This document shows, piece by piece, positions 24,467 through 60,956 of a DNA stretch of 64,000 bases. Where the stretch lies: NCBI GenBank assembly GCA_963824385.1, contig CAWGPD010000004.1:32001-96000 (forward strand), in the 5' to 3' direction. The DNA comes from an uncultured Nitrososphaerota archaeon. GTDB taxonomy: Archaea > Thermoproteota > Nitrososphaeria > Nitrososphaerales > Nitrosopumilaceae. Both the position numbers and the translations under genes were made by a program. Below the pieces are notes generated by a model that saw only the letters and a list, made by a program, of their open reading frames with translations, did no database searches and was not told where the DNA came from. Position 1 is the stretch's first letter. Each line of letters opens with the position of its first letter.

Positions 24467-24970
24467 TACATATCACAATCCATGACTAGAATAAATTTAC
24501 GCATCTCAAATTTATTTATAGATATACCTTAATTATTTGGAGTGGTTTATCAATACAATCTTTCTTTACATGAATACGAAAATCCATGCCAAAATATAAA
24601 CCAAAATCAACATGTGTACAATTACAGCAGTTATGAAAAGAATTTGCATACGAATTAAAAATATCTTGAAACAACAAATGCTTCAAACATATGAAATAAC
24701 CTAATTTAATCATCATACGGTATAATCATCTAAAATTCATAGAGAACTGACGGGGGTCGGTATAGATCTGCATCTAAATTTCTGCCCCATCAATTCAATA
24801 TGTAATAGTGTCTTATCTCTATTAGATGATGTATGTTTATTAAAAATAAACAGATTTTTCAGTAGACACATTTTCAAACCATTATGATGTATATTGTAAT
24901 AGTATGAGAGAAATTTGAATTTAGACTATTTTACGAAAAATTGATAACAGAATATAAAAATCCATCTTGT

Positions 24971-24991
24971 TCGTGTTTGTTTGTTACATAC
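24971..24991. promoter_or_regulatory. Degenerate island motif upstream of the 25031 ORF/TrmB unit
   Basis: TGTTT-GTTTG-TTACA-TAC, core ends 43 nt before ATG 25031; another near match at 24831-24851. Confidence 0.4.
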
Positions 24992-25030
24992 ACACAGTTA
25001 CTGATATCATGGTCTAGATGTTACTTCTCT

Positions 25031-25294
25031 ATGACTTCAATCTCAGCAACAATGGAACTCCCTTTCCAGATGGCAGTTGTCAACTGCAATAGACAAAACA
25101 GGAATACCACGCGATCAATCTGCTTATATATCAACAACAATAGTTATCGATCTACAATGATCGCTATGAGCGCACCTGATCTTCATATAGAAAACAGTTA
25201 CATGCCTAGTTTTGAAGAAAAAAACACATTGTGGCACAATTTAATAGGGAATTACGATCAGAAATTTTATAATTTTAGGAGTGTTTTGTCTTGA
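25031..25294 (+). CDS. Hypothetical protein coupled to TrmB
   Basis: Stop overlaps TrmB start (TTGA); ATG 25031 chosen as start. Confidence 0.4.
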   Translation: MTSISATMELPFQMAVVNCNRQNRNTTRSICLYINNNSYRSTMIAMSAPDLHIENSYMPSFEEKNTLWHNLIGNYDQKFYNFRSVLS

Positions 25295-26103
25295 ATACTG
25301 AAGAAGATCTTTTTTCAACTCTGAAATATTTTGGTCTAGAAGGAGACGATGCTAAGATTTACCTAGGTTTGCTGAGAACAGGAGAAGTAACAGTTGGAAG
25401 TCTATCTGCAAAATTGGATGTAGATAGAGGGAAGACATACAGAGCACTTACAAAATTGCGAAATCTAGGATTGATTACAACAACACTTTCCAATCCGACT
25501 ATATGTAAAGCAGTAAATCCTGAAGAAGCATTCAATGGAATTATTCAGAAAAAACAAGATGAGATTACAACTATGGGAAAACTTTCCAAACAGGTTGTTG
25601 CAAGTCTTGAAGAATTAAAGCGACCAACTCCAGATAATTCCATGTCGTCATTTTCAATCATACAAGGCAGATCAAATATCTATGCAAGAATTGGCAAACT
25701 GGTAACAGAAGCAAACGATGTCGTATATGTAGTAAGCACCGTAGAAGACATAATGAGAATGTATCATACTGCCATTCCGGAAAAGATTAAAGACTGTATC
25801 AAAAGAGGCGGCGAAGTTAGAATAATCACAGAAGTAGAAAATAAACAAGCAATTAGTCTAATACAAAAATTAGGTGCTACTGAAACAAGATTGGGCAAAC
25901 TACCATCAAAAGGAAGAATGGTTGCAGAAAAAGACAAACAAATTGTAATGTCTGGTTCAATGAAAGGAACGATGGATTTGAATGATGACGCGGATTCAAT
26001 TGTACATACAAACTCCACAGAGATAGTAAATAACATATTCAGTCTCTGTGAACACCTGTGGAAGAAATCAAAACCTGTTGAAATGGTATATCAATCAGCA
26101 TGA
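25291..26103 (+). CDS. TrmB-family transcriptional regulator
   Basis: FGL..DAKIYLGLL..G.....LS..L.V.RGKTYRAL..L..LGLI wHTH plus C-terminal effector-binding-like domain. Confidence 0.88.
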   Translation: MNTEEDLFSTLKYFGLEGDDAKIYLGLLRTGEVTVGSLSAKLDVDRGKTYRALTKLRNLGLITTTLSNPTICKAVNPEEAFNGIIQKKQDEITTMGKLSKQVVASLEELKRPTPDNSMSSFSIIQGRSNIYARIGKLVTEANDVVYVVSTVEDIMRMYHTAIPEKIKDCIKRGGEVRIITEVENKQAISLIQKLGATETRLGKLPSKGRMVAEKDKQIVMSGSMKGTMDLNDDADSIVHTNSTEIVNNIFSLCEHLWKKSKPVEMVYQSA

Positions 26104-26168
26104 TATACTTTACAATCAAATCAGATTCAAAATTTCATTTAATCAAATTAGATCTATTACAAATCTAG

Positions 26169-26189
26169 ATTCGTTCAGAATAATCATAC
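26169..26189. promoter_or_regulatory. Island motif upstream of large surface protein
   Basis: CGTTC-AGAAT-AATCA-TAC, core ends 42 nt before TTG 26228. Confidence 0.5.
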
Positions 26190-26227
26190 ACCATCTTATA
26201 TTATATTTTAAAGTGTTATTTTTAGAA

Positions 26228-28870
26228 TTGAAAGCCATAGTCCTAATGCTAATTGTATTAGTCAGTGTTGGAATGATGAAAGCGTATGCAGATGATGGGT
26301 ACAGCTTTGGAGTAAGACTGATTCCTCAAAAACTGATTGAGAATTCAGAGGGCACGTTACAGGTTTACGCATTACACAATGGACATATTTCTCCACAAAA
26401 AATTCAAAACATGATATATTCTTCAAGTGATTCATCAGTATTACAAATAATTGGAGTTGAAAACAGTAATGATGGTTTTACCACCAACATTAAATTAATT
26501 ACATCAAATCATGGAACTGCAAATATTGAATTAGGAGCACCTGGATTTTCTTCAAGTCAAGTGCCAGTAACAGTTTATGGAAATAGCAATTACCCTACAA
26601 AATTACTAGTGCAATCCACCCCTTCGACTTTTTCAGTCAACGGTCCACATGAAGGATATTTCACAGTAGAATTGGCAAATAATGATGGGACACCTGCAAT
26701 TACAGATAATGATATTCTAATCAGTCTTACAACATCAGACAACAAAGTGATTACATTAACTGCCCCGCAAATTATCGTAAAGGCTGGAACGTATTATGGA
26801 ATAGGCAAATTTGAAGTAAAAGAACCAGGTACTGCACAAATATTTGCATCAGGAGAATCATTACAATCTGCAGATTCTACTGTAACAGTCATCCAAAATG
26901 GCTCCCCACATATTCAGATGTTCGTGTATCCTCAGGTAATCAATACTTATCAAGCATCCATAGGATATGTAATCACACAATTAACAGATTCATCAGGCAA
27001 TCTAATGCCAGCAAAAGAAGACATTACAATTCCTGTGAACGTCCTTGATCCTCCTAGTAATGAGACAAATTCAAGTCCCATCTTACATGATGTTACGGCA
27101 TACAACCCAATTGTAATAAAGAAAGGGTCCTATTGGGGATATACCAATTTAGCTGTAAGAGCGGGAGCTAATGCAACTTATACAGTAACTGCATCTGTTC
27201 CAAGCGGATATGTTAATCCAGGACCTGGACAGGTAACTACGGCCACAGGTAAATTTTATGATGACAAATCAGCAGTATTGAGTATTTTACCAATATTGGC
27301 CACTGGAAATGATGAGTTGATAGGCGTCGTACAGTTACAGGATCAAAGTGGAAATCCAGTCATAGCAAGCCATGATCTACAGGTAGAAATAGACTCATCA
27401 GATCCAGATACAATTTCAGTGGACAATGCCATCATGAATAAAGGGACGGGGGTCGCTCTAGTGTTTGCCAAGGTCGGTACAAACATTCCACCACTATTGC
27501 CAGGCATAAGCTCCACGATGATTGCATGCCCAACTTCGACATCAACCACGTCGACATCAACTACGACATCAACCACTTCAACATCAGGATGTAGTACCAT
27601 TACAGGATCTACCGCTCCAGGTATAACATTAACTACAACACCACAACCATTAGTAGGCACCAGTGGTGTTACAGGTGCAGTATCACTACATGTAGTTACA
27701 TATAATGAGCAAACTGTTTACCCCACCATGTTCTTACTCAATAGTAATTCACTTAATCTTGTAGCGCAGTCCCTAATTCCAAATATACTAGGTAACAGTA
27801 ATTTTCCTGTTGCTACATACCTAAAGGATTCGTCGGGTGCAATGACATACTTTTCAGATGATTCAGATCTTAATATTTTGGCTAATGATTATTTTTCAAT
27901 CCCACAAACTACAATACATAAGGGAGACACTGCAGTTGTATCAGAAGCCGATTCCTTAAAGGATGGTTCAACATCCCTTACTTTTATTGCAGGAAATTAT
28001 CAAACATCATTAAATCTCCAGACAAGTAGTACTTCGGCGTCTCAAGTAGCACTAAATTGTTCCAACCCAATTTTTCTCAATATGCCAAATACCATGACTG
28101 TTCAGATTTTTGATTCAAAGTCAAATCCAGTATTTGCTCAAAAAGATATCACCCTAAAATTAGTTTCAACTAACAATCAAATTTTGACACTTCCAGATAA
28201 TGTAACAATCTCAAAAGGACAGTATTATACAACATTTGATGTAACACCAAATTCCATAGGCACGGTACAAGCATCCATCATAGCTGATGACTTGCCTCTT
28301 TCAACATACAAGATTTCAGTAGGTAGTCTGTCTCCAACTTTGAAAATAATCGCACCAAAGTCAGTGTTACCAGGAGACACATTTGTTGCGAGTGTCATAG
28401 CAAAGAATCATGGAGATCCATTAAACAATATGAATATTCAGTGGAAAGTAAACGGTGCAAGTATCCAATCTAGTGACAGTGTAACAAATCAAAATGGAAC
28501 TGCAAACATTGTTTTAGTTCCCAATTCTGGTAGTTCTATCAATCTAGATGTAAACGCTACTGGTTTAGGATACATCCCAGCACCCATTAGTAAGATCATA
28601 ACAATTAATGAAACTGGCTCTAGTTTACCAGTACCAAATAGAAATAGTTCAAGCGTAAATGGTTCCAGTGTGAATGGATCCAGTGGAATTAACCCCAATA
28701 TGTCATCATCTGTAGGAATCCAATCGATATTAAAATTATTCAAAGTCAACGGAATAGACACATTACCAATATTGGTACTTGGCACAATAGCAGCAGGCGG
28801 AGTACTTGTCAAGAAGAACAGCATACTATCACGTAAAACTCAATCAAACACAGGGATAAAATCAAGATAA
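26228..28870 (+). CDS. Large membrane-anchored Ig-like repeat surface protein
   Basis: Signal peptide, repeated VQL.D..G.P..A..DI.I modules, Cys-flanked Thr/Ser insert, C-terminal TM + KK. Confidence 0.8.
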   Translation: MKAIVLMLIVLVSVGMMKAYADDGYSFGVRLIPQKLIENSEGTLQVYALHNGHISPQKIQNMIYSSSDSSVLQIIGVENSNDGFTTNIKLITSNHGTANIELGAPGFSSSQVPVTVYGNSNYPTKLLVQSTPSTFSVNGPHEGYFTVELANNDGTPAITDNDILISLTTSDNKVITLTAPQIIVKAGTYYGIGKFEVKEPGTAQIFASGESLQSADSTVTVIQNGSPHIQMFVYPQVINTYQASIGYVITQLTDSSGNLMPAKEDITIPVNVLDPPSNETNSSPILHDVTAYNPIVIKKGSYWGYTNLAVRAGANATYTVTASVPSGYVNPGPGQVTTATGKFYDDKSAVLSILPILATGNDELIGVVQLQDQSGNPVIASHDLQVEIDSSDPDTISVDNAIMNKGTGVALVFAKVGTNIPPLLPGISSTMIACPTSTSTTSTSTTTSTTSTSGCSTITGSTAPGITLTTTPQPLVGTSGVTGAVSLHVVTYNEQTVYPTMFLLNSNSLNLVAQSLIPNILGNSNFPVATYLKDSSGAMTYFSDDSDLNILANDYFSIPQTTIHKGDTAVVSEADSLKDGSTSLTFIAGNYQTSLNLQTSSTSASQVALNCSNPIFLNMPNTMTVQIFDSKSNPVFAQKDITLKLVSTNNQILTLPDNVTISKGQYYTTFDVTPNSIGTVQASIIADDLPLSTYKISVGSLSPTLKIIAPKSVLPGDTFVASVIAKNHGDPLNNMNIQWKVNGASIQSSDSVTNQNGTANIVLVPNSGSSINLDVNATGLGYIPAPISKIITINETGSSLPVPNRNSSSVNGSSVNGSSGINPNMSSSVGIQSILKLFKVNGIDTLPILVLGTIAAGGVLVKKNSILSRKTQSNTGIKSR

Positions 28871-28942
28871 GACAGTTTTTGACATAGATAACTAATCCAA
28901 ATTTTAAAAGATACAATGTGTTGTAATAATAAATCAAACACA

Positions 28943-28965
28943 AGTATGTTCAATGCGAACATACT
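28943..28965. promoter_or_regulatory. Perfect palindromic island motif
   Basis: AGTATGTTC-AATGC-GAACATACT (9-bp perfect inverted repeat). Confidence 0.7.
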
Positions 28966-35568: not shown

Positions 35569-35589
35569 AAATGTTTACTCTGAACATAC
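35569..35589. promoter_or_regulatory. Island motif upstream of receiver gene
   Basis: ATGTTT-ACTCT-GAACATAC, core ends 40 nt before ATG 35626. Confidence 0.65.
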
Positions 35590-36250: not shown

Positions 36251-37723
36251 ATGATGGATATGGATAATCATAAAACAAGTACAAGTTTGAGAATTGGCAT
36301 ATCCGTCGGGATGATCATAATGATGCTAGGTCTTGCAATATTCCTCAATATATTTACGACATATACAATTACAAATCAAATGAAGGCATTATCGGATTTG
36401 AATATCCCAATAATGCATGAAATATCTAGCATATATACAATACAACAAATGCAATACCAAAGTTTTGATAATATTATAGCATATCAAAAAATTGACAATT
36501 CAGAGAATTATAAATTTTCACAGAACCAATTTGAATCATATAACAATCAATTTGATTATCAGATTAAGAAAATAAATGAATTGATAAACAGATATCCAAA
36601 TTATGGACTTGATGATGATACTAACAAAGATCTTAGTCCAATAATTACAAATCTAAACGAAATTGAATCAATTCACTCACAATATGTACAAAAAGCAACT
36701 CAGATTTTTGATTCTCAGGATAAAAATAATGTAAAAAATTCAGACCCAATGCAAACTGCATTAGAAACTAAGCAAAATCAGTTGAACCTAAAGATATCAA
36801 TATTGGATAGTGATATTCAAAATCTCACGGATGTGTTGGGAACTAAAGCAGATGAAAGTAAACAAAAATCAGTTACATTGCAGGCTGTAATTATAATCTC
36901 TGCAGGAATTATCTCACTGGCGCTAGGATATTTTTTGAATCTAATCAACAAAGATCTTATACAAGAGGTAATTAGAAAAACAAGATCTCTTCAGAAAGCA
37001 AATAGAAAACTAGAAAGAATAAGCGTCCTTAAAGATGATTTTATCAATATTGCATCACATGAATTAAAGAGCCCGCTTCATCCGATATACGGCTTTGTAG
37101 AACTTGCACAAAATGGGGACATTGGAACAGATGAGGCTCTTGCAGGGATATCAAAACAGGCACGACAGTTAGAAGAAGTGGCCAATAGAATTCTTGACAT
37201 TGGAAGAATAGATAATGGAATTCTACAACTATCATATGAAAAATTTGACCTAAGTGACTTGTTGCTAGAGATAACATCATCATACAGATCAAACGAAAAG
37301 ATAAAGATTGAAACAAATGTGGAAAAAGGGATCGAGGTAGAAGCAGATAGGATAAGAATTGGTCAAGTGATTCGTAATTTAATTAATAACGCATTGAAAT
37401 TTACTGAAGCTGGTATAATACAAGTTACTACTCAATATGATTTAGAAAAAAACTTGGTTGAAGTTATTGTAAGCGATAGCGGATCTGGGATTCATCCAGA
37501 CATATTACCCAATTTATTTAATAAATTTGCTACAAGGGGACCCAAAACAGAATCCTGGAAAGGCAACGGATTAGGACTATACTTGTGTAGAGGAATAATT
37601 AATGCACATGGAGGCCGCATTTTTGCATACAACAACAAAGAAACTGGGGCTACCATCAAGTTTACTATTCCAATCATGAGACATCTGAGTGCAAGAGAGT
37701 TACACCAGAAAATAATGAACTAG
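36251..37723 (+). CDS. Membrane sensor histidine kinase
   Basis: Two TMs flanking a helical sensor; ASHELKSPL, NLINNALKFT, DSGSGI, GNGLGL. Confidence 0.93.
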   Translation: MMDMDNHKTSTSLRIGISVGMIIMMLGLAIFLNIFTTYTITNQMKALSDLNIPIMHEISSIYTIQQMQYQSFDNIIAYQKIDNSENYKFSQNQFESYNNQFDYQIKKINELINRYPNYGLDDDTNKDLSPIITNLNEIESIHSQYVQKATQIFDSQDKNNVKNSDPMQTALETKQNQLNLKISILDSDIQNLTDVLGTKADESKQKSVTLQAVIIISAGIISLALGYFLNLINKDLIQEVIRKTRSLQKANRKLERISVLKDDFINIASHELKSPLHPIYGFVELAQNGDIGTDEALAGISKQARQLEEVANRILDIGRIDNGILQLSYEKFDLSDLLLEITSSYRSNEKIKIETNVEKGIEVEADRIRIGQVIRNLINNALKFTEAGIIQVTTQYDLEKNLVEVIVSDSGSGIHPDILPNLFNKFATRGPKTESWKGNGLGLYLCRGIINAHGGRIFAYNNKETGATIKFTIPIMRHLSARELHQKIMN

Positions 37724-37743
37724 TACGTTCAGATCGAACACAC
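37723..37743. promoter_or_regulatory. Island motif upstream of receiver gene
   Basis: GTACGTTC-AGATC-GAACACAC, core ends 38 nt before ATG 37778. Confidence 0.65.
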
Positions 37744-38266: not shown

Positions 38267-38569
38267 TTGACAGACACCATAATACTAAACCTTCCACATG
38301 CAATGGTCCAGAGCATTAATGACGTATGTAAAAAAGGAAGTTATACTAGACAGGAATTAATCCGAGTCGCAATATCTAAGATGCTTTTTGAGCAATTCAA
38401 ACCAGCACCTGAATCAAACAGTATCATCTCTGAAGAAAAATATTCAGACTCTCAAACAAACTCCGAGAATTCAAACTATGAGATTCCATTGGACAAGATA
38501 ATTTCTGTGCGATATACCCTTGACGATGGAAAAGTAATTCACATAATGCGCGGAAAAAAACAGAATTAA
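38267..38569 (+). CDS. Ribbon-helix-helix (CopG-like) protein
   Basis: TIILNLP..MV..IN..CK.G.YTRQELIRVAI. Confidence 0.6.
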   Translation: MTDTIILNLPHAMVQSINDVCKKGSYTRQELIRVAISKMLFEQFKPAPESNSIISEEKYSDSQTNSENSNYEIPLDKIISVRYTLDDGKVIHIMRGKKQN

Positions 38570-38595: not shown

Positions 38596-39691
38596 TTATC
38601 GAGTATAGGTATTTTTTACTTCATATTTTGGAACAATATTTTTTGGCAATCTTATTGTAAAAATAGTAGGGGGAGATCTAACTGTCAATGTACCTCCGTG
38701 TTGTTCTATTATGTTTTTACATATAGAGAGTCCCAAGCCCGTACCAGTTTGCCGGGTTGTAAATAATGGATCAAATATTTTGGATTGTATCTCAGGCGGA
38801 ATTCCAGAACCCGTATCTTCAAATTCAATTTGTACCGAATAATCCAAATCGGTTGTACGTATTTTTATTTCCCCATTTTCATCCATAGACTTGTATTGCA
38901 TTACTTAATATGTTAGAAAAAACAGCTTCAAGTTTTCTTGAATCACAGTTTATTTGCATATCAGCATATGGTTTAGATATTTTAACCCCTACAGGAATCA
39001 AGGTATTTCCAATAGCGCCATCAACTATTGAAAGAAGAGACGTTTGTTCCAACATCAGGTCTGATCTCTTAACGAAATTTAATACATCATCTATCTGATG
39101 TGTCATTCTCTGAATTGCTCTATCAAATCTTCCAAAATGCTGTAATTTTTCATCGATTCTCATAGTTGGTTTAGCCCGCATTATATCCATAGTATTTTTA
39201 ACAATGGAGAGAGGATTTCTCAAGTCATGAGCAAGTCTTGCGGCCAATTCTCCTATCACTGTAAACTTTTCTGCCCTTATCAAGTCCTGAGTTTTTTCAT
39301 CCACCTGTTTTGCAAGAAAGTCCCGCTGCATAGACAATTCTTTTTCTTTTGATAGAACTACATCTAATTTTGATTTCAAATCTCGCGTCATCTGATCATA
39401 ATGAGATTTTTGTTTCTCAAGTTCAATATTTGATCTTGTCAGTTCATCATTTTTTTTGTTCAAAGAGGCACTAATATCAAGTAAAAATCCCACTTTATCT
39501 TGTAAATCATGATTAATGCCAGATAACTCCTTTATTTTCTCCATGGATTCGCTTGCAATAATTGTTAACCTAGTTTCCTTTTCCTGAAGTTCATGTCTAG
39601 TTGCATCTAATTCCTTAAAGGCCCTACCTGTCAGTACACTAAGGTCCTCTATAAGAGACGACTTTTGTTGCTCAGGCTGAGGTTGTGACAA
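38596..39691 (-). CDS. Cytoplasmic histidine kinase with long coiled-coil N-terminus; +1 frameshift at ~38889
   Basis: LAHDLRNPL, NILSNAIQ in one frame; DTGSGI, FDPLFTT, GTGLGL in the next. Confidence 0.88.
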
Positions 39692-39734
39692 TCCAATATT
39701 AAATCACCCACGAGCTACATTAACCCTTATGGTT

Positions 39735-39755
39735 GTGTGTTTTAAACAAACAAAA
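39735..39755. promoter_or_regulatory. Island motif between divergent HK and USP genes
   Basis: GTGTGTTT-TAAAC-AAACA, 47 nt from HK TTG 39691. Confidence 0.55.
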
Positions 39756-41072: not shown

Positions 41073-41456
41073 TTATCTCGACCTAATTACCTTGTTTATA
41101 ATCAGTGCAACATTTGGTCTATCAAATGGTTTTATGATATAGTCTCTCGCACCAGCCTTCATTGCATCTTGTATAACGTGTTTTTGCTCTACTGCTGTAA
41201 CCATTACAACTTTGGCTCTGGGATTAATCCGCAAAATAGACTGGAGTGCATGAATGCCATCTGCTTTTGGCATGTTTACATCCATTGTAACCACATCTGG
41301 CTTGAATTGCTTGTAGGCCTCAACTGCAGCCAATCCATCTCCTGCCTCATAGATTTGAGACGCAAGACCATGTGAGATGAGAATGTCCTTTAATACAATG
41401 CGCATAAAGGATGCATCATCAACTATCAGGAATTTTACATTATTTACAACAGACAT
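41073..41456 (-). CDS. cheY: Chemotaxis response regulator CheY, second identical copy
   Basis: IVDDASFMR, TMDVNMP, VTA, KPF; identical to 45861-46244. Confidence 0.92.
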   Translation of the reverse strand: MSVVNNVKFLIVDDASFMRIVLKDILISHGLASQIYEAGDGLAAVEAYKQFKPDVVTMDVNMPKADGIHALQSILRINPRAKVVMVTAVEQKHVIQDAMKAGARDYIIKPFDRPNVALIINKVIRSR

Positions 41457-41508
41457 TTTACATTCCCATTCCTAAAGTTGGCGAGTTTTTTAGTAAGATG
41501 CCAACATC
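41073..41508. repeat. 436-bp direct duplication of 45861-46296 (cheY plus last 17 codons of cheW)
   Basis: No mismatch seen by eye; offset 4788. Confidence 0.9.
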
Positions 41509-41599: not shown

Positions 41600-41626
41600 C
41601 ATGTCTGTATATTTTGAACAGACATG
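41600..41626. promoter_or_regulatory. Island motif upstream of orphan cheY unit
   Basis: CATGTCTGTAT-ATTTT-GAACAGACATG (9-bp inverted arms); core 38 nt from ATG 41568. Confidence 0.55.
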
Positions 41627-45860: not shown

Positions 45861-46244
45861 TTATCTCGACCTAATTACCTTGTTTATAATCAGTGCAACA
45901 TTTGGTCTATCAAATGGTTTTATGATATAGTCTCTCGCACCAGCCTTCATTGCATCTTGTATAACGTGTTTTTGCTCTACTGCTGTAACCATTACAACTT
46001 TGGCTCTGGGATTAATCCGCAAAATAGACTGGAGTGCATGAATGCCATCTGCTTTTGGCATGTTTACATCCATTGTAACCACATCTGGCTTGAATTGCTT
46101 GTAGGCCTCAACTGCAGCCAATCCATCTCCTGCCTCATAGATTTGAGACGCAAGACCATGTGAGATGAGAATGTCCTTTAATACAATGCGCATAAAGGAT
46201 GCATCATCAACTATCAGGAATTTTACATTATTTACAACAGACAT
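45861..46244 (-). CDS. cheY: Chemotaxis response regulator CheY
   Basis: Receiver motifs; lies between cheW and cheB. Confidence 0.93.
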   Translation of the reverse strand: MSVVNNVKFLIVDDASFMRIVLKDILISHGLASQIYEAGDGLAAVEAYKQFKPDVVTMDVNMPKADGIHALQSILRINPRAKVVMVTAVEQKHVIQDAMKAGARDYIIKPFDRPNVALIINKVIRSR

Positions 46245-46245
46245 T

Positions 46246-46728
46246 TTACATTCCCATTCCTAAAGTTGGCGAGTTTTTTAGTAAGATGCCAACATCAAGT
46301 AAAACAACCAGTTTTTGTCCAGTTTTTGCAATACCTATAACATATGAAATAGACTCAAAACCGCCAGAAACATTACAGTCTACATCTGTAGATGGGATTT
46401 TAATGACTTGATCTACGCCATCGGTCAATAGTCCTACAAGTTTAGAATCTATTTCAACTACAAGAATCATCATCTTGGAATTAATGATATTAGTTTTTGA
46501 AAAACCTAGTTTTTCCTTTAAATCTATAATCGGCATTATGGTACCTCTAAGATTCATCACCCCTTTTACGTAGCCTGGGCTATTTGGAATAACAGTGATA
46601 GATTCCAATGGTCGTATTTCTCTTACTTGATCAATTAGAATGCCATAATTTTCTTGTTTGTTTTTTTCCTCATCATGCAATCTAAATATAATTATTTGAA
46701 AATCTGATACGATAACTTCGCTTGTCAT
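46246..46728 (-). CDS. cheW: Coupling protein CheW
   Basis: [33 protein letters not shown]. Confidence 0.94.
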
Positions 46729-48130: not shown

Positions 48131-48151
48131 GTATGTTTGAATCGATCATAC
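48131..48151. promoter_or_regulatory. Island motif upstream of mcp-che operon
   Basis: GTATGTTT-GAATC-GATCATAC, 48 nt from TTG 48086. Confidence 0.65.
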
Positions 48152-48234: not shown

Positions 48235-49359
48235 TCAGTTAATTTTCTGTATGATTACGGAATGCAATCCAGAAGCATATGATTCATAACCTGGAGAATA
48301 GGCATGAGCAATACAGCATTTATCTCCACGATAATCTGTAATCATGAAATCTTTCTTTTTTTCAAAAAGCATATTTCTTCCAAGAAACTCAATTCTATCA
48401 TCAAGTATGAGGTCTTGAGAGTCTGCAAAAATAAGACCGTCATCATCAACAATGCATATTCTAGTAGTGTGTTTTTCTGCATCAATAAGATGAGATTGCT
48501 TTACAATTTTTTGTGCCATGTCTTCCCATCTAAAAAATGCACCCAGCACACCTATGATTTTACCATGTTGATATCCTCCCTCACGAACAGCGCATGAAAA
48601 AACAAGACTTACTTCATTATGCACCAAAGTATTTCGGGTAACTTTTTGAAAACCGAATTCTTTTCCATTGCTAGTTTTCAGTGCAGTCTCAAACCATTCT
48701 GAGCCTTTTACGTTTGCACCTACTATGTTAATATTTTCTGGTCGTCCATTTGCTACAATGTTTCCATCCAAATCACATAACATTAGATCAAAATATACAG
48801 TATATGAATTCAAGATGATGCTAAAACGCTTTTCGGCTAGATCATAACCACCTCTTGTCTTTCTTGTTAATGCGTTAACTAAACTATCATCTGTAGCCCA
48901 CCAAATGACATTAATGGATCTTTCAAAGAGATTTCTGTCAACAATATCTATATTTGTAAGCGCAAGATCAGATAAGCGAGTTCCCCTAACATTAGTAGCT
49001 TGTATTCTTATCAAATTTTCTAATTCGTTTAAGGCATCATGACTTTCAATACGCATTTTTTTATTGACCACCCCTATTTTATTAGAAAGTTCATTCATTT
49101 GCGCTGCAACTACTGAGAATGTCTTTCCAGCTAAACCTGCCCTGCTTGCTTCAATTCTAGCATTTATTGCAATCATCTGTGTTTGTCCATTTAGTTTTCC
49201 AATTTCATGAATTGCTGAATCTACTTTATTTTTCAACATTTGTGACAATTCTGCTACACGTTCAAGTGTAAAGTTATTTTCATCCATTTGCGACGTTAGT
49301 TCTGGGGCAATCCCACTTTTTTGATTTTCAGATTCACTCAATAGCATATCAGAATTCAT
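48235..49359 (-). CDS. Soluble protein: short MCP signalling tip followed by Cache-like sensor domain
   Basis: QMIAINARIEASRAG..G..FSVVA; D.DGNIVA, WF, FSCAVR, IIGVLG, VDDDG; no TM. Confidence 0.75.
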   Translation of the reverse strand: MNSDMLLSESENQKSGIAPELTSQMDENNFTLERVAELSQMLKNKVDSAIHEIGKLNGQTQMIAINARIEASRAGLAGKTFSVVAAQMNELSNKIGVVNKKMRIESHDALNELENLIRIQATNVRGTRLSDLALTNIDIVDRNLFERSINVIWWATDDSLVNALTRKTRGGYDLAEKRFSIILNSYTVYFDLMLCDLDGNIVANGRPENINIVGANVKGSEWFETALKTSNGKEFGFQKVTRNTLVHNEVSLVFSCAVREGGYQHGKIIGVLGAFFRWEDMAQKIVKQSHLIDAEKHTTRICIVDDDGLIFADSQDLILDDRIEFLGRNMLFEKKKDFMITDYRGDKCCIAHAYSPGYESYASGLHSVIIQKIN

Positions 49360-49446: not shown

Positions 49447-49467
49447 GTCTGTTTAGCACAAACATAC
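49447..49467. promoter_or_regulatory. Island motif upstream of soluble chemoreceptor
   Basis: GTCTGTTT-AGCAC-AAACATAC. Confidence 0.65.
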
Positions 49468-49642: not shown

Positions 49643-49663
49643 GTTCGATCAAGATGCACAGAC
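49643..49663. promoter_or_regulatory. Island motif upstream of archaellin 1
   Basis: GTTCGATC-AAGAT-GCACAGAC, core ends 39 nt before ATG 49699. Confidence 0.55.
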
Positions 49664-50400: not shown

Positions 50401-50422
50401 GCAGAAAACTTATTCTAACAAC

Positions 50423-50440
50423 CTTTCTTTTTTTATTTTT
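50423..50440 (+). terminator. Oligo-T archaeal terminator-like tract after archaellin (also ~51304-51321 and ~52185-52202)
   Basis: ctttctttttttattttt ~22 nt after each stop. Confidence 0.6.
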
Positions 50441-50542
50441 AATTAAATCAATTATAAATTATCTTGCATAATAATTTCTTTTTGAAATTATATTTTTTAA
50501 TTTATTACTATACGATAATCCACAGTCATGACATAGAATGTT

Positions 50543-50563
50543 GTTTGATCAATAAACACACAC
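50543..50563. promoter_or_regulatory. Island motif upstream of archaellin 2 (copy at 51424-51444 for archaellin 3)
   Basis: GTTTGATC-AATAA-ACACACAC, core ends 39 nt before ATG 50599. Confidence 0.55.
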
Positions 50564-50598
50564 TGTCGGATAATACCATACCGTGGATATCACTAGTA

Positions 50599-51282
50599 AT
50601 GAAATCTACAACAAGAAGTAGAAAGACTCGTCGTGGAGTCATCGGTATAGAGTCTGCAATAGTTATGATAGCATTCGTAATCGTTGCTGCAGCTTTAGCC
50701 TTTGTCGTCCTCAACATGGGTTTTTCAACAACACAAAAGGCAAAGACAGCAATTTCATCCTCTGTCTCAGAATCCAGCAGTGCACTTGAGATCGCAGGCA
50801 AAGTAACAGGCTTTGGTGATGTCTCAGCAGGTTCACTCAACGCCACAGTAGTACCAATCAAGGTAGCAGGTGGTGGAGATTCAGTAAGCTTGGATCCTAC
50901 TCTGACAGACATCAAGTATTACAGCAACACCGTAAGATATGACAACATCTATGGTGTGAATTGTGTATTAGGCTCAGCCACATACAACAATGCATCAGCA
51001 GCAATTGATGCCGCAGTTCTTGCAGGCTGTACTAACGCCAATTCATTAACTGGCGGAGCACCACATTCTACCCAGGCAATTATTTACTGGGATGTGAACA
51101 TAAACAACAACAGCATACTTGATCAAGGTGAACATGCAAACATGGTCATTCAATATGATAGTGCAGACAAACCAAAACAGCTAGATGACATCAAGGCTGA
51201 AATCATCGTACCAACTGGTTCTGCATTGACTGTAGAAAGACAAGTGCCAGCAATTACCACAAACATAGTTGACCTAGGATAA
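50599..51282 (+). CDS. flaB: Archaellin type B, copy 1
   Basis: MKSTTRSRKTRRG/VIGIESAIV; start set at ATG 50599. Confidence 0.95.
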   Translation: MKSTTRSRKTRRGVIGIESAIVMIAFVIVAAALAFVVLNMGFSTTQKAKTAISSSVSESSSALEIAGKVTGFGDVSAGSLNATVVPIKVAGGGDSVSLDPTLTDIKYYSNTVRYDNIYGVNCVLGSATYNNASAAIDAAVLAGCTNANSLTGGAPHSTQAIIYWDVNINNNSILDQGEHANMVIQYDSADKPKQLDDIKAEIIVPTGSALTVERQVPAITTNIVDLG

Positions 51283-51479
51283 GCAAAAACTTATTCTAAC
51301 AACCTTTCTTTTTTTATTTTTAATTAAATCAATTATAAATTATCTTGCATAATAATTTCTTTTTGAAATTATATTTTTTAATTTATTACTATACGATAAT
51401 CCACAGTCATGACATAGAATGTTGTTTGATCAATAAACACACACTGTCGGATAATACCATACCGTGGATATCACTAGTA

Positions 51480-52163
51480 ATGAAATCTACAACAAGAAGT
51501 AGAAAGACTCGTCGTGGAGTCATCGGTATAGAGTCTGCAATAGTTATGATAGCATTCGTAATCGTTGCTGCAGCTTTAGCCTTTGTCGTCCTCAACATGG
51601 GTTTTTCAACAACACAAAAGGCAAAGACAGCAATTTCATCCTCTGTCTCAGAATCCAGCAGTGCACTTGAGATCGCAGGCAAAGTAACAGGCTTTGGTGA
51701 TGTCTCAGCAGGTTCACTCAACGCCACAGTAGTACCAATCAAGGTAGCAGGTGGTGGAGATTCAGTAAGCTTGGATCCTACTCTGACAGACATCAAGTAT
51801 TACAGCAACACCGTAAGATATGACAACATCTATGGTGTGAATTGTGTATTAGGCTCAGCCACATACAACAATGCATCAGCAGCAATTGATGCCGCAGTTC
51901 TTGCAGGCTGTACTAACGCCAATTCATTAACTGGCGGAGCACCACATTCTACCCAGGCAATTATTTACTGGGATGTGAACATAAACAACAACAGCATACT
52001 TGATCAAGGTGAACATGCAAACATGGTCATTCAATATGATAGTGCAGACAAACCAAAACAGCTAGATGACATCAAGGCTGAAATCATCGTACCAACTGGT
52101 TCTGCATTGACTGTAGAAAGACAAGTGCCAGCAATTACCACAAACATAGTTGACCTAGGATAA
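51480..52163 (+). CDS. flaB: Archaellin type B, copy 2 (identical)
   Basis: Identical translation to 50599-51282. Confidence 0.93.
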   Translation: MKSTTRSRKTRRGVIGIESAIVMIAFVIVAAALAFVVLNMGFSTTQKAKTAISSSVSESSSALEIAGKVTGFGDVSAGSLNATVVPIKVAGGGDSVSLDPTLTDIKYYSNTVRYDNIYGVNCVLGSATYNNASAAIDAAVLAGCTNANSLTGGAPHSTQAIIYWDVNINNNSILDQGEHANMVIQYDSADKPKQLDDIKAEIIVPTGSALTVERQVPAITTNIVDLG

Positions 52164-52335
52164 GCAAAAACTTATTCTAACAACCTTTCTTTTTTTATTT
52201 TTAATTAAATTCAAGATGGAATATAATTTACAATCATATGTGAAGATCCAAGTGTTTTTGCGTTCTAAAAAATTACCCTATTAGTCTAATTTGAACAAGC
52301 GTCGTCGTTTTGTTTTATTACCAAGTACTTTTTTT

Positions 52336-53333: not shown

Positions 53334-53354
53334 GTTTGATCATACCAAACATAC
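53334..53354. promoter_or_regulatory. Island motif upstream of archaellin 4 / fla operon
   Basis: GTTTGATC-ATACC-AAACATAC, core ends 40 nt before ATG 53391. Confidence 0.65.
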
Positions 53355-56379: not shown

Positions 56380-57077
56380 TTAAAACAATACCAACAGGCA
56401 ATGAGGAAATAGACAGACAGCTCGCTGGAGGCATACCTACACCTTGTTTGATGATGATAGAGGGCGAACATGGTACTGGAAAGAGTGCATTAGGAGCTCA
56501 GGTAGTTCAAGGAATGCTGTCCTCGAAAATGAAAGTATTGTGCATTACAGAAAACACTGTCAAAGACTATATTGAAAAAATGAAGACAATTACATTTAAT
56601 TTTACAACGCCATTTTTACAAAATCGATTTTCAATATTGCCATTGCATGTATATGGTGCAGTATGGTCTCAAAAACAATCTTCGTTCTTGCTACCAGTAA
56701 TTGGTCGATATATTAGCAGCAATGCCAAGAATTTTGATTGTGTTATAATAGATTCAATATCTTTGTTGACAATGTATTCAGATACAGATAGTATACTAGA
56801 TTTTCTGACCAGATGCAAATATCTTGTTTCAACAGGCATGACAGTAATACTGACGATGCACAAGACATCAGTTCCAGCGGATGTATCAATGAGAATAAAG
56901 TCTGCATGCGATGTATATTTTTCACTAAGTACTGCAAGCATAGGTGGAAAAGCTGTAAAAGTTATGCAAGTTGTAAAATTGATAGGCTCAAGTGAAGCAT
57001 CAGAATCATCTTTTGCTTTTGAGATTGATACCAATTTTGGGATAAAGATTGTACCAATCTCTACAGCTAATGCATAA
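56376..57077 (+). CDS. flaH: Archaellum KaiC-like ATPase FlaH (ArlH)
   Basis: TGNEEIDRQLAGGIP, GEHGTGKS, IIDSIS, GIKIVPIS. Confidence 0.93.
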   Translation: MIKTIPTGNEEIDRQLAGGIPTPCLMMIEGEHGTGKSALGAQVVQGMLSSKMKVLCITENTVKDYIEKMKTITFNFTTPFLQNRFSILPLHVYGAVWSQKQSSFLLPVIGRYISSNAKNFDCVIIDSISLLTMYSDTDSILDFLTRCKYLVSTGMTVILTMHKTSVPADVSMRIKSACDVYFSLSTASIGGKAVKVMQVVKLIGSSEASESSFAFEIDTNFGIKIVPISTANA

Positions 57078-57116
57078 TAGGGAGAAAAATGAAAAAAACA
57101 AATCGAGGTAAATGAG

Positions 57117-58787
57117 TTGGGGTTTAATTTTTCACTAGTAACTGACAAAAAATTTTCAGAGGCACTGAAAAAGTCTGAACACTTGAAGAGTTACCTATCA
57201 AATTACATTGACAAGGGAAATCCCATACCAATATTTACTGAAAAGTTAGAAGGAGAACACAAAAAACTAAAAGATCCTAACTTGATTTATCCAATATCAG
57301 AAAACACTTACATTCACATCAATCCGCATTCTGCTTCAGCTGACGGTTATGTTGAATATGCAATAATAGAGCCAGATGAGCCCAATCGCGAACTAATGGA
57401 AAATGCCGACAAGTTATTTGCATTACATGCAGGAAACATGAATCCACCAATTGAGCTCACTGAGAGATTTAACATGATTGATCAATATCTGGACAAGACA
57501 ATTTTAACTTCAAATGCATTAATTGACTATTCCAAGATGGATATCTTCAAATCAAAGAATCTGTCAGTATATGAAAAGGATGTACCAAGTCTAAAATATC
57601 ATTTTCTGCGTAAGAGGGCAGGAATGGGCCTTCTTGATCCATTCCTTACCGACCCCAACCTAGAAGATATTTCAATAGTAGGAGCTGGTAACATGTACGT
57701 CATCCATAAGATGTTTGGCGCACTAAAATGCCCTGTTTTTTTAAGTGCCGAGGAAATCGATGATCTTATAATCAGTATGGCCGAGCAGTTTGGTAAGACT
57801 GTATCTCATGCAAAACCGGTTATAGACGCCACACTTCCAGAAGGCTCTAGAATCAACATTGTATTTGGAAAAGATGTTAGTAGAAAAGGAACAAATGCCA
57901 CAATCAGAAGATTTGCAAGCACTCCGCTCTCAATAACACAGATCATTCCAAGTAAAGCCATGGTATCAATTGAAGCGGCATACTTGTGGATGATGTTGGC
58001 AGAAGGAATGAGTGTATTCATTAATGGAGAGACTGCATCAGGAAAGACCACCACAATGATGGCACTTACGGCTTTTATTCCATCCAACTGGAAAATTGTC
58101 AGCATTGAGGATACACCTGAGCCTACACTGCCACACAACAACTGGATTAGTGAGGTTACAAGAGATACTGGAAACCCAAGTTCAAGTGTAACAATGTTTG
58201 ATCTCTTAAAGGCTGCATTAAGACAAAGACCTAACTATATTTTCGTAGGAGAAATCAGAGGTGCCGAAGCCAACATTGCATTTGGAGCCATGCAGACAGG
58301 TCACCCCGTAATTAGTACATTCCACGCTGGAAACATGACTGCGTTAATTCAAAGAATTACCAACCCCCCAATGAACATACCAAAAACAAACGTAGAGAAT
58401 TTGAATTTAGCAATGTTTCAAGCAGCAGTAACAGGTCCAGATGGTAAGAGAGTTAGAAGAGTATTATCAATTAACGAAGTCATCGGATACAATCCGGAAG
58501 GAAACAATGTAATGTTCATTCCAGTTTTTAATTGGGATCCTGGTACGGATACAGTCAAGTTTAGAGGAAAGGGAAGTAGCGCATTATTTATTTCAAAACT
58601 TTTAGAAAAAAGAGGAATGTCAAGAAAAGATGAAGGTTTGCTTTATGAAGAACTTGCACTGAGAACCAAAATTTTGGACAAGATGGTTGAAAAAAAGATT
58701 TTCAATTTTTATGATGTATATGATTCCATATCTAGGTGCAGAGAAATCGGTCTTGAGCAATTCTTAAAGGAGCTTAATGCACTTTGA
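57117..58787 (+). CDS. flaI: Archaellum motor ATPase FlaI (ArlI)
   Basis: DPNLEDIS, GETASGKTT, IEDTPE, ALRQRPNYIFVGEIRGAE, QTGH..TFHA. Confidence 0.95.
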   Translation: MGFNFSLVTDKKFSEALKKSEHLKSYLSNYIDKGNPIPIFTEKLEGEHKKLKDPNLIYPISENTYIHINPHSASADGYVEYAIIEPDEPNRELMENADKLFALHAGNMNPPIELTERFNMIDQYLDKTILTSNALIDYSKMDIFKSKNLSVYEKDVPSLKYHFLRKRAGMGLLDPFLTDPNLEDISIVGAGNMYVIHKMFGALKCPVFLSAEEIDDLIISMAEQFGKTVSHAKPVIDATLPEGSRINIVFGKDVSRKGTNATIRRFASTPLSITQIIPSKAMVSIEAAYLWMMLAEGMSVFINGETASGKTTTMMALTAFIPSNWKIVSIEDTPEPTLPHNNWISEVTRDTGNPSSSVTMFDLLKAALRQRPNYIFVGEIRGAEANIAFGAMQTGHPVISTFHAGNMTALIQRITNPPMNIPKTNVENLNLAMFQAAVTGPDGKRVRRVLSINEVIGYNPEGNNVMFIPVFNWDPGTDTVKFRGKGSSALFISKLLEKRGMSRKDEGLLYEELALRTKILDKMVEKKIFNFYDVYDSISRCREIGLEQFLKELNAL

Positions 58788-60275
58788 TGGAAAAATTAGC
58801 CATTAAGGAAAAACTTGCAAGTATGCGCAAATCAGATGAGGATTTGCTATATTTTGTAGCGTTTCTATACGCATTGGCAACAGGAGAGGTCGGCTCAGTG
58901 GATTTGATTAAAAGTGGAGTAACTTCAGGATATGGTAGGTATTCAGATTCATTTAGAGAGGTGTACCGACTTGGAGTAGGATGGGGATATGGTTTGGCAA
59001 GATCATGTGAAATGATTGCCTCAAAGATGAAAGACAACTCTGATCCTCTAAAACAGACTACTAGTAAAATTGTCTCAGGTGATAAGATTGGGAGATGAGC
59101 TACGTGTATTTTTCACAGACGAGATGGCATCTGCAATTCATGTGTATTCAATACGCTATGAACGCAGTTTAGAGACTCAGAAACTTTTCCTTGAAATGTT
59201 TTATACAATTTCATCAACTGCGTCTTTTATGATTGCCTCAAACTCCATCATGGCAATGCTCATGGGAAGTTCCAATTCAGAATCAGTTTTCACCATGTCC
59301 TTTGTGGGAGTAATAGTAAGTATGGGAGCCTTCATAGTCATCATGTACGTATTATTTCCAAAAGATAAATTATCAACTGGAAAATATACGGGTTCACAAA
59401 AGTTCAAGATGACTTTTTTTGTAACTCTTGGTGCAGGTATTGCTATTGGGATAGCTCTTACTCTTACCAATCTAGTACCTCTTCCTCTCGTAGTAGTAAT
59501 TGCAGTTATTCCATTGTTTGTACCAGGATTCATTGCTCGAAAATTAGAAGCAGAATTGAGAAGTTATGATGAATGGTATCCTCCGTTTATCAGACATTTT
59601 GGTGAGATATACACAATGGTAGGTTCCATGGGACAGGCACTTGATGCAGTGCTTAGAAGTAATTTTGGTCCACTCCAAAAACATATTGTAGCATTTAAGA
59701 ACCGCATAAAAAATAGAATAAATTCAGAAACATCTTTTGAGATATTTTCAATGGAATCAGGAACTGCCATAATTGAATCAGGAAACACCATCATGTCACG
59801 AGCTCTTCTCAAAGGAGCAAACATGAATGAGGTAGGCAACAAAGTATCAGAAATTTCTTCCAAACTAAATGAATTGAGGTCAAAGAGAGTACAGACATCA
59901 AAAACTTTTGAGACCATAGTCATTGTACTCCATGGTCTTACCATGGCAATTTTTGGCTTGATGGCTACACTTATTGAAGTATTTCACAAATTGTTAGCAA
60001 CAGTACCCGTTTCAACTAATGCAGGATTCACACTAAGTCCAATTGATCCTAACTTTGTACACATGATGATGCCTCTAGTTGTGATTGCCACATCCACCAT
60101 AAACGCATTGGCAGTAAAGGTTGGTCAGGGAGGCCTCTTCAAGACAGTGTTATTTAATATTGCAATGTTGACTGTCATTGGAGGAATTACAATGTATGGA
60201 ACTACTGCAGCATTAAGCCAATTTCTTACAAGCCACATATTGGATAGTTATGCTCCAACTGCTCCAGGTCATTAG
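58784..60275 (+). CDS. flaJ: Archaellum membrane platform FlaJ (ArlJ); +1 frameshift at ~59057
   Basis: ORFs 58784-59098 and 59070-60275 join into a polytopic protein after flaI. Confidence 0.87.
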
Positions 60276-60351
60276 ATCAATCAAGTAAATAATAGTTTAA
60301 TTTGAATAAAGTAAAAAACAAATGATTAAAATAATTTATAAAATTATAGTG

Positions 60352-60768
60352 TCAGTTAGTTGAAATATTTTGTATTTTCCTAGCCAACAGTTCATTAACT
60401 GTATGTACTACTTTTTGCATGTCAAACGGCTTGTATATTATTGCATCTGCACCCAAGTCTTCTAATTTTTTTATGGTCTCAGAACGGACATCTCCTGTAA
60501 TCATGACCATGATAGCACGTGGATTTACTTTTTTGATTTGCTCTAGGGCATAAAATCCATCATAATTTGGCATCATGACATCTGAGAAAATAACATCTGG
60601 AACCAACTCTTGGTAAACTTTTTCAGCTTGTTTTCCATCAAAAGCCGTTCCTACCACAGTAACATTACAAATCTCTAAAAATTCAACAAATAGATTTACA
60701 GTATCTTCGTCATCATCAACTACAATTGCGCTACACCTATTTTTTTCGACTCTACCTACATCCATCAT
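60352..60768 (-). CDS. Stand-alone response regulator receiver
   Basis: VVDDD, SDVMMPNYDG, ITG, YKPF. Confidence 0.9.
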   Translation of the reverse strand: MMDVGRVEKNRCSAIVVDDDEDTVNLFVEFLEICNVTVVGTAFDGKQAEKVYQELVPDVIFSDVMMPNYDGFYALEQIKKVNPRAIMVMITGDVRSETIKKLEDLGADAIIYKPFDMQKVVHTVNELLARKIQNISTN

Positions 60769-60956
60769 ACAAATAGCGTAAATCGGAATGCTCTAATATT
60801 ATCCAGTGTGTCAAGATTAGACAAACAGTATATGTTCAGAATCATTTTTAAAAATCATCACAATCCCTTCAAAAGCACCCATTAATTCTCGAGTTCCTAG
60901 TACGGGAATATTAGAACTATTGAACTACTATCTGGCATGTCATACAGAAAAATTAC

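Follow-up and report, generated by a model that had tools for sequence, protein, structure and literature searches.

What switches on the swimming genes of an ammonia-oxidising archaeon, and does the same switch reach its sensory genes? The question is raised by a 64,000-nucleotide (nt) stretch of DNA, referred to here as the window, from an uncultured archaeon that we place in the genus Nitrosotalea (ammonia-oxidising archaea, family Nitrosopumilaceae). The window covers positions 32001-96000 of contig C4 in a 1.68-Mb genome of 5 contigs with ~36% G+C (G000); coordinates are window positions throughout, except where a locus label (L###) is given, and compared genomes carry G### labels. A Pfam scan defines a motility and signalling island between 24.5 and 60.9 kb of the window, with 45 island open reading frames (ORFs), and a first-pass annotation had claimed that a palindromic operator recurs in its intergenic DNA. 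We find that this operator is a 21-bp dyad, GTNTGTTY-N5-RAACANAC, with 8-bp arms and a 5-nt spacer. We read it as a conserved cis-regulatory site at ~15 island promoters that would be bound by a dimer of TrmB1, a TrmB-family regulator encoded within the island (25291-26103), likely activating these promoters, including its own; on the sequence comparisons below we give this reading a probability of about 0.55.

The recurrence of the dyad is real. The pattern GTNTGTTYNNNNNRAACANAC, with up to 2 mismatches, matches the window 14 times, always between 24831 and 59058; the mean in 100 dinucleotide shuffles of the window is 1.81 (standard deviation 1.27, maximum 7), and 0/100 shuffles reach 14. When the whole 1.68-Mb genome is searched with up to 1 mismatch, 9 of the 12 sites fall into 29 kb of the window (24831-53334). 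A position weight matrix (PWM) with the spacer neutralised, built from 9 island seed sites, finds 9 sites of at least 15 bits in the 37.5-kb island versus 3 in the other 1.64 Mb, all 3 of them intergenic. Because this first PWM was built from island sites, we added two further tests. In a leave-one-out analysis the 9 seed sites score 15.3-23.4 bits, and 0-4 of 1,639,700 outside positions score equally well or better; a PWM built only from 34 sites in other genera yields, at 14 bits or more, 11 island matches versus 8 elsewhere.

Using a k-mer count that assumes no motif, we also set the 3.9 kb of intergenic DNA in the island against the 262 kb of intergenic DNA elsewhere. The top 5-mer is AAACA/TGTTT (39 vs 17.1) and the top 6-mer is CAAACA/TGTTTG (14 vs 3.3), while AACATAC/GTATGTT ranks third among 7-mers (7 vs 1.1). 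The top dyads in an exact-palindrome search (GTTC-N5-GAAC, TGTT-N7-AACA and GTATG-N11-CATAC) are all in register with the motif. These results show that the dyad occurs in the island far above chance frequency. One match is intragenic (59038-59058, 14.6 bits, inside orf104 just before arlJ); we take it as chance because there is no counterpart of at least 11 bits at the orthologous place in G014 or G015.

Conservation in orthologous promoters, a check named in the first-pass annotation, is found in congeners and in three other genera. Syntenic islands of three congeners carry 18 (G014, 60 kb), 14 (G015, 60 kb) and 9 (G016, 23 kb) matches of at least 11 bits, corresponding site for site to those of G000. 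Every one of the 33 public loci with a TrmB1 ortholog has a dyad, placed before a small ORF at -262 to -331 relative to the start of TrmB1. An alignment of 12 upstream regions (A1) is unalignable to the left, becomes invariant at the first base of the dyad and stays conserved through a TATA-like CATATC to the ATG. Across genera the arms are conserved, and the spacers and flanks vary.

Whole-genome counts of the consensus (up to 1 mismatch, with the reversed pattern as control) follow the presence of TrmB1. There are 7-17 sites, compared with 2-7 for the control, in 15 further genomes with a TrmB1 ortholog, and 0-4 compared with 1-8 in 10 genomes that lack one. Within the genus, ten congeners with TrmB1 have 7-16 sites (control 2-7) and four complete congeners without it have 0-4 (control 2-6); in other genera, five TrmB1-bearing genomes have 15-17 sites versus 1-3 in five non-motile genomes of genus g19. 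The matches cluster, with 10/12 in 31 kb in G014 and 8/16 in 30 kb in G015. The motif is enriched in the island relative to shuffled and other intergenic DNA, and it stands at chance level in relatives without an island.

We then looked beyond the genus, fetching 40-60 kb around the TrmB1 ortholog in six genomes of other genera. The orthologs (55-59% identity) adjoin archaellins in G107 and G041 (g18), G187 (g19) and G319 (g21), and there, too, the dyad stands before archaellin, che, receiver and kinase genes, with 7, 8, 20 and 16 matches of at least 10 bits, respectively. In G101 and G243 the archaellin matches lie elsewhere: the neighbours of the ortholog are a prepilin peptidase and a kinase, and only 2 dyad matches were found in each region. 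A survey of the family drew 114 genomes evenly from those at least 90% complete. Among the 28 with an archaellin match, 26 have a TrmB1-like gene of at least 53% identity and 2 have one of 47-48%; among the 86 without an archaellin match, none has a TrmB1-like gene above 45% identity. This co-occurrence shows that archaellins and TrmB1 travel together, not that they function together, because the genomes are related and the TrmB1 gene lies within the island.

Three genomes of another family (G032, G036 and G028) show no enrichment of the consensus, with 2 matches versus 2 for the control in G032. In G032, a distant ammonia oxidiser, the archaellin ATG has a related dyad, GTTTGTAA-N6-TTACAAAC, 34 nt upstream (L041:1990-2011). 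Three more dyads of the form GTATGTWA-N6-TTACATAC occur elsewhere in that genome, and two direct repeats of TACATACAGAT stand between a large ORF and a cheC-like gene (L040, ~12950-13060). There may be a sister system in this family.

Which protein would bind the dyad? The first-pass annotation had listed two TrmB proteins, ORF 60957 and an ORF of ribbon-helix-helix (RHH) type at 38267, and among these only the TrmB encoded at 25291-26103 fits; the other three fail on their distribution. TrmB1 matches the TrmB-type winged helix-turn-helix (wHTH) domain PF01978 over residues 11-78 (53.6 bits, cut-off 25.6). An AlphaFold2 model of the protein (predicted local distance difference test score 82) has the wHTH, a long helix (77-102) and a PLD-like C-terminal domain. 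Foldseek matches the model to TrmBL2 (5bpi, E 3.6e-14 over 266 columns) and TrmB (3qph, E 1e-10), and its C-terminal half to PLD-fold proteins; the template modelling score is 0.40 because the domains are oriented differently. Its length of 270 amino acids (aa) is near that of TrmBL2 (264 aa). By its wHTH and the overall fold of the model, TrmB1 belongs to the TrmB family. The sugar-binding domain PF11495 finds no match in TrmB1 in Pfam even at E up to 1, and some TrmB1 homologs of 55-62% identity carry a precomputed PF11495 match.

TrmB1 is the most conserved protein of the island. It is 94-96% identical in the nearest congeners and 80-82% in four others, and homologs beyond the genus are 54-62% identical. 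Against G014 and G015 the figure is 94-95%, compared with 92-93% for ArlH/ArlI and 73-80% for archaellins. Taking the recognition helix as the third helix of the predicted winged-helix domain (46-58), we find R46, G47, K48, Y50 and R51 invariant in 36 homologs, down to 54% identity. TrmB1 is also the sole predicted DNA-binding protein common to the motif-bearing islands of four genera.

Its paralogs carry dyads as well. In G107 and G041 (g18), TrmB1-like paralogs have a dyad ~40-50 nt upstream of their own gene; this holds for two of the three such paralogs in that genus. The second TrmB of the window (TrmB2, 61728), which differs from TrmB1 at three of the five invariant recognition-helix positions, has a single-copy dyad of its own, ATATGTAACACCCTATTACACAC (61670-61692; 8-N7-8, ATATGTAA-N7-TTACACAC), exactly 35 nt before ATG 61728. 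A near-identical dyad, ATGTGTAA-N7-TTACACAC, stands at the same place in G015, and a like form precedes a TrmB2-like gene of G019. This pattern points to autoregulation of each TrmB paralog, with a separate variant of a GTATGT-type dyad serving each. In G008, a congener without an archaellin match, we observed a TrmB1-like gene of 45% identity with the dyad GTATGTGTTATTTGAACACAC 41 nt before its ATG (L081:1416-1436).

The other candidate binders were set aside. TrmB2 has a different dyad of its own, and no ortholog of it was found in the motif-bearing genomes G014, G004, G016, G010 and G007 (best match 23-24%). ORF 60957 (60957-61628, 223 aa, intact here) is not found in these same five genomes, and its counterparts in G003, G009, G005, G015, G002 and G012 contain 1-3 in-frame stops. 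ORF 38267 (weakly RHH-like, E 0.008), orf131 and orf89 are restricted to Nitrosotalea: searches at E up to 0.05 in the islands fetched from G107, G041, G187 and G319 returned none of them. Finally, no dyad was found upstream of a 48%-identical paralog of TrmB1 on contig C3, either here or in three congeners; the G002 copy has only a near-match of 12.6 bits, and the distinct copy in G008 is the sole one with a dyad.

Where, then, do the sites lie, and what do they precede? Gene order in the island begins with an 87-aa ORF, the TrmB1 gene, a large surface protein with Ig domains and two CBS-type genes. The middle holds receivers, histidine kinases, a Usp gene, the che operon with an orphan cheY and an MCP-signal/Cache gene; four archaellins, with a cupredoxin gene among them, the arl motor genes to arlJ and one more receiver make up the end. 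The dyad of the TrmB1 operon (GTTTGTTTGTTACATACACAC, 24975..24995, + strand, 21.0 bits) lies 35 nt before ATG 25031 and is the predicted autoregulatory site of TrmB1. That ATG opens the 87-aa ORF (25031..25294, + strand), a fast-evolving gene (38-48% identity) that precedes and overlaps the gene for TrmB1, the predicted dyad binder (25291..26103, + strand). A distal second site (GTATGTTTATTAAAAATAAAC, 24831..24851, unoriented; 19.3 bits, 1 mismatch) lies 144 nt upstream of the operon dyad and has a counterpart of at least 12 bits in just 3/33 orthologous loci.

Downstream of TrmB1, a weak dyad (ATTCGTTCAGAATAATCATAC, 26169..26189, + strand, 5.9 bits) lies 38 nt before TTG 26228 of an 880-aa surface protein; the orthologous site in G014 scores 11.0 bits. 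The perfect dyad GTATGTTCAATGCGAACATAC (28944..28964, + strand; 25.8 bits, 0 mismatches) precedes the pair of CBS-domain genes, whose ATG (29053) is 88 nt away. It is kept in 32/33 orthologous loci, and the remaining locus ends too early. An ATG at 35 nt (29000) opens 18 codons only, and its G014 counterpart is GTG. Two receiver genes follow. The dyad AAATGTTTACTCTGAACATAC (35569..35589, + strand, 11.2 bits) lies 36 nt before the first, at ATG 35626, and has counterparts of 15.7-20.2 bits at the orthologous places in G014, G015 and G016; GTACGTTCAGATCGAACACAC (37723..37743, + strand, 22.4 bits) lies 34 nt before the second (ATG 37778, receiver plus ORF 38267) and is kept in the same three genomes.

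Two overlapping registers of the dyad (39731..39755, unoriented; 19.9 and 12.2 bits), also kept in G014, G015 and G016, sit between a histidine kinase gene on the - strand (TTG 39691 at 43 nt) and the Usp gene on the + strand. The kinase gene itself (38596-39691, - strand) is split by a frameshift within the ATPase N-box, with an overlap at 38879-38901, and is a single open frame of 367-376 residues, stop to stop, in the same three congeners; the split copy is either a pseudogene or an assembly error.

On the - strand, the dyad GTCTGTATATTTTGAACAGAC (41603..41623, 24.6 bits) precedes the orphan copy of cheY (ATG 41456 at 146 nt), and an ATG at 34 nt (41568) opens 36 codons. This cheY belongs to an exact 436-bp duplicate (41073-41508 and 45861-46296) comprising cheY and 52 nt upstream; one copy lies within the che operon and the other is the orphan behind its own dyad, with a 146-nt leader. 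The che operon (MCP-cheW-cheY-cheB-cheA-cheC-cheR) has a dyad at 48131..48151 (- strand, 21.3 bits), 44 nt from TTG 48086; in G014, G015 and G016, the corresponding dyad has an ATG at 40 nt. The perfect dyad GTCTGTTTAGCACAAACATAC (49447..49467, - strand, 23.4 bits) precedes a gene (48235-49359) previously called a cytoplasmic kinase with a spacing of 47-48 nt. The gene encodes an MCP-signal/Cache protein, and the dyad stands 87 nt before its ATG (49359); a nearer ATG, at 35 nt (49411), opens 20 codons.

The four archaellin promoters come next. Dyads at 49643..49663 (11.0 bits), 50543..50563 (GTTTGATCAATAAACACACAC, 13.7 bits) and 51424..51444 (identical to the 50543 site, 13.7 bits), all on the + strand, lie 35 nt before archaellins 1, 2 and 3 (ATG 49699, 50599 and 51480), and GTTTGATCATACCAAACATAC (53334..53354, + strand, 22.7 bits) lies 36 nt before ATG 53391, which starts archaellin 4 and the arl operon, ending with arlJ at 60275. 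The orthologs of the 49643 site in G014, G015 and G016 score 18.6-22.1 bits. These promoters share an asymmetry, with distal arm GTTTGATC and proximal arm AAACAYAC, that is seen at 53334 and in three other genera. Archaellin 3 is an exact tandem duplicate of archaellin 2: the stretch 50405-52210 repeats with a period of 881 bp, an offset at which 925 bases are identical, giving two identical genes whose promoters and dyads are identical too. The repeat could be a recent duplication or an assembly collapse/expansion. The last site, the weak variant GTGTGTCAAGATTAGACAAAC (60806..60826, - strand, 7.0 bits), lies 37 nt before ATG 60768 of a receiver gene, and its counterpart GTGTGTCGACATCAGACAAAC in G014 stands beside the orthologous receiver.

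Of the 17 sites proposed by the first-pass annotation, 13 score at least 11 bits, 2 are weak yet conserved in G014 and 2 fail. All eight that it had called strong hold up, at 11.2-25.8 bits. Its nine weak sites divide: five are supported (24831, 24975, 49643, 50543 and 51424; 11.0-21.0 bits), 26169 and 60806 are marginal, and 36200 (-10.2 bits) and 52283 (-1.7 bits) find no support. The claimed spacings for the sensor kinase and the cupredoxin rest on these last two sites and fall with them. The larger proposal, one palindromic operator shared by archaellin, arl, che, receiver, sensor and surface-protein promoters, is supported.

The spacing between dyad and start codon had been described as very constant, and this is so at most sites. 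The distances given were ~4 nt too large because the core had been drawn shorter; the true 21-bp dyads begin 3 nt before the core starts assigned earlier. Measured from the 21-bp dyad, the proximal edge lies 34-38 nt from the start codon at 11/15 sites. The distance is 34-36 nt at 15/50 sites in four Nitrosotalea genomes and 35-36 nt at 18/40 sites (at least 12 bits) in four genomes of other genera.

To place the dyad relative to the core promoter, we drew an oriented logo from 41 unique sites (8 genomes, 4 genera). It reads G-T-t-T-G-w-T-y-A-nnn-y-r-A-A-C-A-n-A-C, followed by ~6 variable nt and then A-T-A-T at +7 to +10 (-29 to -26 relative to the ATG). Taken together, 601 upstream regions in this genome show a T/A-rich TATA signal at -30 to -25 and an A-rich signal of the B recognition element (BRE) at -38 to -33 from the ATG; TATA at this distance is the picture expected if many mRNAs are leaderless. 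A hard expectation-maximisation search for a TATA/BRE model converged on a motif without positional preference. From the distances of ATAT and ATG in the logo, the dyad therefore covers about -56 to -36, directly upstream of the BRE position and just touching the BRE, and the earlier placement of the operator immediately upstream of BRE/TATA is upheld. An A-rich BRE consensus is absent from the 6 nt that separate dyad and TATA. From this layout we infer that transcripts would start ~36 nt after the dyad and that most dyad-driven mRNAs would be leaderless. The short-ORF ATGs at 34-35 nt (29000, 41568 and 49411) probably mark transcript starts, not genes.

How might TrmB1 act from this position? 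A TrmB1 dimer would bind the dyad upstream of BRE/TATA and help TFB and TBP onto the adjoining elements, leading to activation; it would activate its own operon in the same way, by positive autoregulation. Activation is favoured because the site lies upstream of BRE/TATA, as do those of TrmBL1, TFB-RF1, Ptr2 and EarA. The same operator could serve a repressor: at -56 to -36, TrmB1 would cover the edge of the BRE and keep TFB off until a signal released it. The end of the proximal arm, at -36, falls within the window (-38 to -33) that the BRE signal occupies genome-wide, and a repressor that blocks TFB would fit this position nearly as well. There are precedents: TrmB is described as repressing the TM promoter by covering BRE/TATA (PMC4706686), and CsmR of Haloferax is described as binding beside the TATA box of arl promoters, with targets that rise in the deletion strain (PMC13286277). 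We consider repression unlikely, however. The dyad leaves uncovered the TATA element and the predicted start, where most archaeal repressors sit. TrmBL1, which binds TATCAC-N5-GTGATA, is reported to activate from sites upstream of BRE/TATA (2/3 templates in vitro) and to repress when the motif lies downstream (PMC4706686). The missing BRE consensus in the 6-nt gap fits promoters that need help, as reported for EarA (PMC5512572).

It is also improbable, in our view, that the operator is real and its binder is another protein encoded elsewhere, with TrmB1 merely one member of the regulon. TrmB1 and ORF 38267 alike lie in operons behind a dyad, and G032 has its related dyad before an archaellin although its best TrmB1 match is 28% identical and far from the island. 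On the other side, no other predicted DNA-binding protein is common to the examined motif-bearing islands of the Nitrosopumilaceae, the motif is at chance level in the 10 searched genomes that lack a TrmB1 ortholog, TrmB paralogs have separate dyads of their own, likewise placed, and an N5-spaced palindrome suits a TrmB-type dimer. That there is no regulator site at all, the dyad being a chance or compositional pattern, a by-product of duplicated promoters or a core-promoter element read by a specialised TFB/TBP paralog, strikes us as very improbable. The sites at 50543 and 51424 are indeed copies from an exact tandem duplication, and T/G-rich words are common in an AT-rich genome. Yet no shuffle attains the observed count, the genes that follow the other sites are unrelated, and the arms stay conserved from genus to genus, unlike the variable spacers and flanks; furthermore, no TFB/TBP family match occurs among the 45 island ORFs, and a 21-bp dyad is unlike the short, asymmetric BRE.

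Several observations weigh against activation by TrmB1 through the dyad, the reading we prefer. The link between TrmB1 and the dyad is guilt by association; their co-occurrence comes partly from linkage within the island, and the related genomes are not independent samples. In g18, most consensus matches lie outside the motility island (only 3/15 are inside it in G107) and G107 has three TrmB1-like paralogs, so the assignment of motif to protein is less clean there. The exact-palindrome counts in this genome are small (2-4) and fail correction for multiple testing, with a best p of 3.3e-5 over 4,352 tests (also over 17,408). As to geometry, the genome-wide TATA/BRE signal on which the leaderless layout rests is weak, at most 0.06 bits per position, and the reach of the proximal arm into the BRE window suits a TFB-blocking repressor nearly as well, as noted above. 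Four dyads (28944, 41603, 48131 and 49447) lie 87-146 nt from the nearest ATG of a downstream gene (48131 has its TTG at 44 nt), and no dyad was found at some island units, among them the TPR gene, kinase 36251, orf131 and the cupredoxin gene.

TrmB1 and its dyad resemble several known systems without matching any of them. One is TrmBL1 (Tgr) with the Thermococcales glycolytic motif, likewise a TrmB-family winged-helix regulator with an N5 palindrome reused at many promoters, as described in PMC4706686. The two operators share only the N5 layout of the dyad, and we do not place the sites in that regulon: the arms here are GTNTGTTY/RAACANAC, the targets are motility, chemotaxis and signalling genes, not sugar metabolism, and the phylum is different. 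Furthermore, Pfam finds no sugar-binding domain in TrmB1, and all sites here occupy one fixed upstream position.

EarA is close in function, being described as an archaellum-gene regulator with sites immediately upstream of a weak BRE and a gene often beside arl/che (PMC5512572, PMC10117864); its hexamer, given as TACATA (PMC10665913), shares ACATA with the arm AACATAC. EarA sites consist of four 6-bp boxes, whereas those here are single 21-bp dyads. EarA is reported from Euryarchaeota only (PMC10117864), and the regulon here adds che, receiver, kinase and surface-protein genes. We compared EarA by its description; a scan of 8 island proteins against NCBIfam returned no match named EarA. TFB-RF1 and Ptr2, which activate by recruiting TFB or TBP, are likewise reported to occupy sites just upstream of BRE/TATA where the promoter needs help (PMC5512572, PMC4706686). 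They belong to other protein families, and recruitment by TrmB1 is a proposal here.

CsmR of Haloferax volcanii, an Lrp/AsnC protein, is described as binding a semi-palindromic site (TATCA-N4-TGATA) beside the TATA box of arl and motility promoters and governing a motility regulon (PMC13286277). It differs in its protein family, its motif and its mainly repressive action as reported there, and the same source states that CsmR homologs in Nitrosopumilaceae do not co-occur with archaellins. We found no Lrp/AsnC match among the 45 island ORFs, and the motif is not that of CsmR. Our literature searches, in which supplements were not covered, returned no description of the dyad or of an archaellum regulator in ammonia-oxidising archaea. 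A 2021 review names archaellum-gene regulators for two groups only, Sulfolobales (the Arn network) and Euryarchaeota (EarA), and treats Thaumarchaeota as unexplored (PMC10117864). TrmB-family regulators paired with palindromic operators are a known class, and the predicted pair belongs to it, in a new job.

How far does the regulon reach? Outside the island, five intergenic sites score at least 13 bits; three lie 37-45 nt before receiver genes, of which the genome has 14 outside the island, and one lies 39 nt before a HAMP-PAS sensor gene. The regulon would take in these outside genes for receivers and a sensor; in congeners it would also include a small, conserved non-coding transcript. The latter corresponds to a conserved block of ~70 nt without an ORF that follows a perfect dyad and GATATAT in congeners (L086:1152-1220 in G014; L093, L089, L094, L087 and L088). 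The block begins exactly +36 after the dyad, which gives independent support for the start geometry. Pairing is possible between its two ends, AGUAGAAACCGUGGA on the 5' side and UCCACGGUCUCUAU on the 3' side; the 19 predicted pairs are nearly invariant and offer no covariation support. A search of Rfam returned no match to the block, and we did not find it in G000. We regard it as a candidate small RNA of the regulon.

At the flanks of the island are TrmB2 (61728), ORF 60957 and two paralogs of the prepilin peptidase (A24), at 23774-24466 and 62638-63333. Both paralogs are on the - strand and, together with the TrmB2 module, bracket the island; the fetched region of G014 has only one prepilin-peptidase match.

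These comparisons lead to a broader proposal, which we hold tentatively and at somewhat less than even odds: that TrmB1 and its dyad are the master switch of swimming in Nitrosopumilaceae, a TrmB-type activator under positive autoregulation governing archaellins, arl, che, single-domain receivers, kinases, the surface protein and the small RNA through one fixed promoter layout, and travelling with the island whenever lineages of ammonia-oxidising archaea acquire or lose it. If true, TrmB1 would be the first archaellum regulator known in the phylum, and the TrmB family would have gained a new job. The swimming programme is predicted to go beyond the motor, to orphan receivers, kinases, the CBS pair, the large surface protein and the small RNA. 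The proposal comes down to a pair that can be tested, one protein and one 21-bp site with ~15 targets. No fewer than four genera of the most abundant ammonia oxidisers keep the pair, and some of these organisms are available in culture. The fixed promoter layout could help in annotating transcript starts and in building inducible promoters in archaea that are hard to manipulate.

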